Below, in pieces: positions 28,009 through 28,036 of a stretch of DNA of 64,000 bases. The translations under genes and the position numbers were made by a program. The DNA is from Escherichia coli. GTDB taxonomy: Bacteria; Pseudomonadota; Gammaproteobacteria; Enterobacterales; Enterobacteriaceae. The notes below the pieces were generated by a model. The model was not told the origin of the DNA and did not search any database. It worked only from the letters and a program-made list of their open reading frames with translations. The stretch is taken from assembly GCF_003790525.1 (NCBI RefSeq), contig NZ_CP033635.1; one strand, 5' to 3'. Positions within the stretch are counted from its first letter, which is position 1; the number at the start of each line of letters is the position of its first letter.

Positions 28009-28036
28009 TCAGATTCGTTTTATAGCGCGAAGTTCC
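28009..28036 (-). promoter_or_regulatory. Sigma-E (RpoE) type promoter upstream of degP
   Basis: Minus strand reads GGAACTT (28036..28030), 16-nt spacer, TCTGA (28013..28009), matching the sigma-E consensus GGAACTT-N16-TCnnA, about 45 nt upstream of the degP start. Confidence 0.6.

Follow-up and report, generated by a model that had tools for sequence, protein, structure and literature searches.

The promoter of degP (htrA) is among the founding promoters of the ECF sigma factor sigma-E (RpoE) and serves as a standard envelope-stress reporter; its description in Escherichia coli K-12 is said to go back to the work of Lipinska in 1988 and of Erickson and Gross in 1989. An older sigma-E consensus, GAACTT-N16-TCTGA, was built from the promoters rpoH P3, degP and rpoE. 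The htrA/degP gene was the second for which transcription by RpoE was demonstrated; it is a member of the core sigma-E regulon that nine genomes have in common, and its mRNA serves as a sensitive indicator of the sigma-E response. A degP fragment spanning positions -65 to +20 was included among 60 cloned sigma-E promoters and was active at basal levels of sigma-E. The gene also responds to the Cpx system, with expression rising 26- to 32-fold on Cpx activation.

In the consensus derived from 28 sigma-E promoters, the -35 element is GGAACTTTT and the -10 element is (T/C)GGTCAAAA, with a spacer of 15-19 nt, for which 16 nt is strongly preferred (Rhodius et al., 2006). Transcription starts at a purine after a discriminator of 5 or 6 nt, the distance from the -35 element to +1 is 25-28 nt, mostly 26 or 27 nt, and the 30 nt upstream of the -35 element are typically A/T-rich (Rhodius et al., 2006). 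A genome-wide map of transcription start sites places the degP start of strain MG1655 at position 180844, with a 40-nt leader and an upstream string that ends in ...GGAACTTCAGGCTATAAAACGAATCTGAAGAACA; this is the sole degP start given for E. coli (Kim et al., 2012; PMC3415461, supplementary file 2). The Rfam family RF02700 is based on the 40-nt leader that the sigma-E-dependent transcript carries in Salmonella, and temperature-dependent opening of the Shine-Dalgarno hairpin has been shown for the Salmonella htrA thermometer. For CpxR, a table of 41 known sites includes two at degP, degP1 (GTAAAGACGAACAAT) and degP2 (GTAAATTACCGTCAG), both taken from De Wulf 2002 (PMC9600279).

Here, we analysed a motif in the dgt-degP intergenic region of an E. 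coli genome, within a sequenced stretch of 64 kb that is referred to below, at its full length, as the window. The motif is, with high confidence, the sigma-E promoter of degP, with a CpxR site just upstream. Such an arrangement is already known and is ordinary for this gene, so that the value of the case is mainly that of a control, in which sequence alone sufficed to recognize a textbook stress promoter and to assign it to the right strand and gene. The analysis adds several small points, namely, the conservation of a non-consensus TCTGA element, the invariance of a weak-scoring proximal CpxR box as opposed to the lineage-specific occurrence of a strong-scoring distal one, the minority status of the K-12 spacer allele and the identity of the leader with the HtrA RNA thermometer.

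Genomic context of the degP promoter

The window is oriented opposite to the K-12 chromosome. DegP is encoded on its minus strand by the ORF at 26539-27963 (474 aa), which matches the NCBIfam equivalog NF008189 with 935 bits (cut-off, 720), and RefSeq agrees with this assignment. The upstream neighbour, dgt, corresponds to the ORF at 28093-29610 (-) (505 aa; dGTPase equivalog NF003429, 896 bits), and both NCBIfam scores are far above the cut-off; the ORF at 25227-26402 (-) encodes CdaR. Between dgt and degP lies an intergenic region of 129 bp, which holds the motif. A 501-nt query around the promoter is 100% identical to the sequence of E. coli strain AR_0013, and the annotation dgt | degP was recovered with it in 5424 of 5426 complete E. 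coli genomes. An earlier sequence-only reading had placed degP on the minus strand, and its strand and gene assignments are borne out by the NCBIfam equivalogs and by genome annotation. Prediction over positions 27800-28400 yielded no intrinsic-terminator-like site between dgt and degP on the degP strand, and a scan of the same segment found no canonical sigma-70 promoter on that strand.

Architecture and distinctiveness of the promoter motif

The motif GGAACTT-N16-TCTGA is intergenic and occupies positions 28009-28036 on the minus strand, 45 nt 5' of the degP ATG; both its sequence and its coordinates, read directly, are exactly those given by the sequence-only reading. The -35 element, GGAACTT (28030-28036, minus strand; -33 to -27 from the start), agrees with the published sigma-E -35 element at seven of seven positions. 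It is followed by a 16-nt spacer, cgcgctataaaacgaa / CGCGCTATAAAACGAA (28014-28029, minus strand), which contains a conserved TATAAA (28024-28019), by the -10 element TCTGA (28009-28013, minus strand; -10 to -6) and by the 5-nt discriminator AGAAC (28008-28004, minus strand), which lies between the -10 element and the start. The 30 nt upstream of the -35 element (28037-28066, minus strand; -63 to -34) are A/T-rich and UP-element-like, with an A+T content of 73% compared to 49% over the full 64 kb. The promoter geometry falls in the preferred sigma-E classes throughout: the spacer measures 16 nt and the discriminator 5 nt, +1 is 26 nt from the -35 element, and transcription starts at A. The -10 element, TCTGA, matches TCAAA at three of five positions, with the TC present, and lacks the usual GG on its 5' side, as judged by comparison with the consensus. 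Thus, the description of the motif as an almost exact match to the -35/-10 consensus holds for the -35 element and the spacing but not for the -10 element. The agreement with the older GAACTT-N16-TCTGA consensus is partly circular because that consensus was derived in part from degP itself.

There is a single exact copy of GGAACTT-N16-TCTGA in the window, compared to 0.01 expected from dinucleotide shuffles, but the test is post hoc and overrates the site, which was itself the source of the pattern. A fairer scan, albeit one of low specificity, used the published consensus GGAACTT-N15-19-TCAAA with TC held fixed and returned 21 sites in the window at two or fewer mismatches, whereas GGAACTT alone is present in five copies versus 7.6 expected. 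Given these 21 consensus-like sites and the lack of enrichment of GGAACTT, the motif string alone is not statistically special. The degP site is, however, the only one in the window in which TC..A follows a perfect -35 element at the favoured distance of 16 nt, and the significance of the string comes from its context, not from the string alone.

Other sigma-E-like strings are found elsewhere in the window. One of them, GGAACTA-N16-TCGAA (12841-12868, minus strand), is located inside rseP, approximately 900 nt upstream of bamA, and the bamA starts in the genome-wide map (197572 and 197586; Kim et al., 2012; PMC3415461) do not match it. Another, GGAACTTT-N16-TCTTAAAAA (47801-47829, plus strand), includes one of the five copies of GGAACTT and is found at the 3' end of the ORF preceding dksA, approximately 200 nt upstream of the dksA-like ORF.

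Transcription start and leader

By sequence identity, the start mapped in K-12 at MG1655 position 180844 can be carried over to the A at 28003 (minus strand) of the window. This position is the sixth nucleotide after TCTGA and lies 40 nt before the ATG at 27963, so that the mapped start is compatible with the proposed -10 element, and the distance to degP, which the sequence-only reading had considered appropriate, corresponds to a leader of 40 nt. The supplements of Mendoza-Vargas 2009 contain no degP entry. The map of Kim et al. (2012) gives the position of the start, whereas the sigma-E dependence of degP is taken from other literature; the membership of degP in the core sigma-E regulon and in the library of cloned sigma-E promoters bears out the envelope-stress control that had been invoked for this locus.

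The leader itself provides a further line of evidence. Together with the first two codons, the 40-nt leader (28003-27964) forms a segment, 27958-28003 on the minus strand, that matches the HtrA fourU RNA thermometer (Rfam RF02700) with a score of 77 bits (E=1e-16; gathering score, 52) and covers model positions 1-46 of 46. The match begins exactly at 28003, which independently supports the start. In the hairpin predicted for the E. coli leader, UUUU pairs with the Shine-Dalgarno GAGA at -3 kcal/mol, a value no better than that of shuffled sequences.

Collectively, the motif, its geometry relative to the published start and the Rfam match, along with the conservation described below, are direct observations on this locus, and they fit a simple scheme of regulation. 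RNA polymerase carrying sigma-E would read GGAACTT (-33 to -27) and TCTGA (-10 to -6) at their optimal separation of 16 nt and would begin transcription at A 28003, producing a degP mRNA with a 40-nt leader. Envelope stress releases sigma-E from the anti-sigma factor RseA and thereby increases degP transcription, and the leader would fold into the HtrA thermometer, a fourU hairpin of low stability, and so add temperature control at the level of translation.

Conservation of the promoter and the K-12 spacer allele

We performed a protein-anchored scan with one genome per species, which covered 80 Enterobacteriaceae loci with DegP proteins 83-99% identical and yielded 79 distinct upstream sequences, the window included. 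The -35 element is GGAACTT in 62 of these, GGAACTA in 13 and TGAACTT in four, with GAACT being invariant. The -10 element is TCTGA in 67 sequences, TCTTA in six, TCTCA in three and TCTAT in three, and never TCAAA; the conservation of TCTGA among orthologues implies that the non-consensus -10 element is maintained. Spacer length is likewise constrained (16 nt in 73 sequences and 17 nt in six), and the sixth nucleotide after the -10 element is A in 70 of the 79. While these motifs and their spacing are retained, the first three positions of the discriminator vary freely and the bases right after the dgt stop codon are unconserved. Judging from this comparison, the conservation pattern is that expected of a functional promoter.

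Approximately 32 of the 79 species (among them those represented by loci L011, L022, L035, L060, L075 and L080) carry a 7-nt insertion, such as TAGTCAC, after the -10 element and before a conserved CACAG. The insertion looks like a short duplication, and in the species that carry it, CAC is still found at the start position and A is still the sixth nucleotide after the -10 element. Because the insertion misleads an alignment-based count, the discriminator counts were taken on unaligned sequences. The degP leader accordingly falls into two length classes, 39-41 nt in one group of species and 44-48 nt in the other.

Comparison of the window with K-12 MC1061 revealed two differing bases in 161 aligned nucleotides, both in the spacer, where the window has CGCG and K-12 has CAGG (28026-28027, minus strand). 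Of 5424 E. coli genomes, 4015 have exactly the 95-nt promoter region of the window, whereas the K-12 form is within the minority of 1409 genomes. Given that other genera also have CGCG in the spacer, the K-12 allele looks derived.

CpxR sites

The sequence-only reading had also suggested, with less confidence, that GTAAA-like motifs around 28055 to 28090 could be CpxR sites. The proximal box in this segment is the curated site degP1, GTAAAGACGAACAAT (28068-28082, minus strand; -79 to -65), with GTAAA at 28082-28078 (minus strand) as its first half-site, and the invariance of its half-sites among the orthologues agrees with the suggestion. The second curated site, degP2, GTAAATTACCGTCAG (28218-28232, minus strand; -229 to -215), is distal and lies inside dgt. 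CpxR binding at degP and induction of the gene by Cpx are, like sigma-E dependence, taken from the literature.

To score the two boxes, we used a CpxR matrix built from the other 38 known sites, with the degP and skp sites left out (training median, 13.8 bits). The distal box scores 12.1 bits and ranks 11 in the window, whereas the proximal box scores just 6.2 bits and ranks 186 of approximately 128,000 window positions. The matrix scan gives a good score to the distal box and a poor one to the proximal box, and the caution with which the CpxR sites had been ranked below the sigma-E promoter was justified. The low score of degP1 is due to its second half-site, ACAAT, which departs from the GTAAA of boxes of the cpxP and ppiA type. 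Conservation reverses the ranking by the matrix. All 79 orthologues retain the GTAAAG and CAAT of the proximal box, with the positions between the two mostly variable, whereas the distal box is unconserved outside Escherichia, its third codon positions being at or below background. Therefore, the matrix score alone would miss a site that has been kept in evolution.

Two further boxes with high scores lie in other parts of the window. The best match to the matrix is GTAAATCTATGAAAA (29686-29700, plus strand; 16.4 bits) in the dgt/mtn divergent region, a sequence also given as a CpxR prediction in PMC9600279, and the curated skp box, GTAAAACCTGGTAAG, upstream of skp (9499-9513, minus strand), scores 14.2 bits and ranks 4.

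Downstream of the proximal box, TTTAC, an inverted GTAAA (28058-28062, minus strand; -59 to -55), is invariant in the 79 orthologues and completes a phased block, GTAAA-N5-ACAAT-N5-TTTAC, with a register of 5+5+5+5+5. Judging by its sequence and placement, TTTAC may serve CpxR as a third half-site, or it may belong to an UP element. From this arrangement we infer both the role of TTTAC and the geometry of activation: phosphorylated CpxR would bind the conserved GTAAAG-N5-CAAT box at -79 to -65, possibly also the in-phase TTTAC at -59 to -55, and would further activate the degP promoter from a class-I-like upstream position.

Possible additional promoters

The TATAAA within the spacer, which is conserved in approximately 60 of the 79 orthologues, raises a different scenario, in which a sigma-70-type -10 element (TATAAA/TAAAAC, 28024-28017) nested in the spacer would direct transcription from G 28010 and would be the source of basal and/or CpxR-activated degP transcription instead. 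We regard this as unlikely for E. coli, even though there are precedents among its relatives. In Salmonella, an htrA start that yields a 47-nt leader and is constitutive at a low level lies 7 nt 5' of the stress-only start with the 40-nt leader. In K. pneumoniae, a start with an upstream string ending in ...GACTCTG maps to this G within TCTGA as well (Kim et al., 2012; PMC3415461). The hexamer at -12 to -7 from that G is TAAAAT in both Salmonella and K. pneumoniae, whereas the E. coli hexamer, TAAAAC, is without the key final T. Furthermore, 180844 is the only start given for E. coli degP, there is no recognizable -35 element, and the sigma-70 scan was empty on the degP strand. The second start in Salmonella and Klebsiella shows that the region is able to host another promoter, and a nested sigma-70-type promoter is plausible in these relatives; with TAAAAC in place of TAAAAT and 180844 as the only start, it is probably weak or absent in E. 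coli. Even if real, such a promoter would add to the sigma-E promoter rather than replace it.

A related possibility, to which we also give little weight, is that overlapping sigma-E (28003) and sigma-70-type (28010) promoters together make up the degP control region, with CpxR acting on the latter instead of, or in addition to, the former. It may find its basis in the invariant GTAAA-N5-ACAAT-N5-TTTAC block along with the conserved TATAAA in the spacer, and the nested promoter of E. coli would then be a weakened remnant, with TAAAAC for TAAAAT. If so, which polymerase CpxR activates at degP becomes a real and testable question.

Additional conserved sequences are present within dgt. TATTAT at 28191-28186 (minus strand) is exact in 61 of the 79 sequences, and its synonymous positions are conserved at 0.85-0.95 where the mean is 0.59; at 28153-28165, synonymous sites are conserved over another stretch. 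By analogy with Salmonella, a putative start 7-8 nt 3' of TATTAT would give rise to a 215-nt leader, the same length as that of Salmonella htrAp1. The distal CpxR box degP2 is positioned at -54 to -40 from this putative internal start near 28178.

Finally, the notion that GGAACTT-N16-TCTGA is a chance match and that degP owes its transcription to read-through from dgt or to a promoter within that gene could appeal to the lack of GGAACTT enrichment in the window (5 versus 7.6 expected), to the many window strings that fit the consensus as well, to the lack of a visible terminator after dgt, to the conserved TATTAT as a potential upstream promoter and to the long-leader transcripts of Salmonella that begin in dgt, but we consider it highly improbable and reject it on account of the mapped start, exactly 6 nt past the -10 element, and of conservation, with motifs and spacing kept across genera while the adjoining bases drift, in addition to the activity of the -65 to +20 fragment as a cloned sigma-E promoter.

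Comparison with known promoters and regulatory sites

The sigma-E promoter of degP with its upstream CpxR box, the reading that we favour, can be compared with four described systems. With consensus sigma-E promoters, such as those of rybB and micA, it agrees in its -35 heptamer, in the lengths of the spacer (16 nt) and the discriminator (5 nt), in starting at A and in having an A/T-rich region upstream, but differs from them in having TCTGA instead of TCAAA as the -10 element and in the absence of the preceding GG. With CpxR boxes of the GTAAA-N5-GTAAA form, for instance those of cpxP and ppiA, degP1 has in common the 5' GTAAA half-site, the N5 spacing and the upstream position, and it departs from the usual boxes in the invariant, in-phase inverted GTAAA located 5 nt downstream. 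The htrAp3 promoter of Salmonella enterica has the same -35 and -10 elements, a 40-nt leader and a full-length RF02700 match in the leader; it differs in the additional start 7 nt upstream (47-nt leader), in the starts inside dgt and in the spacer hexamer, which is TAAAAT in Salmonella as opposed to TAAAAC in E. coli. The closest counterpart, the degP promoter of E. coli K-12, is shared with the window in its dgt-degP locus, -35 and -10 elements, spacing, start base and leader, the distinction being the spacer allele, CAGG (minority) in K-12 versus CGCG (majority) in the window.
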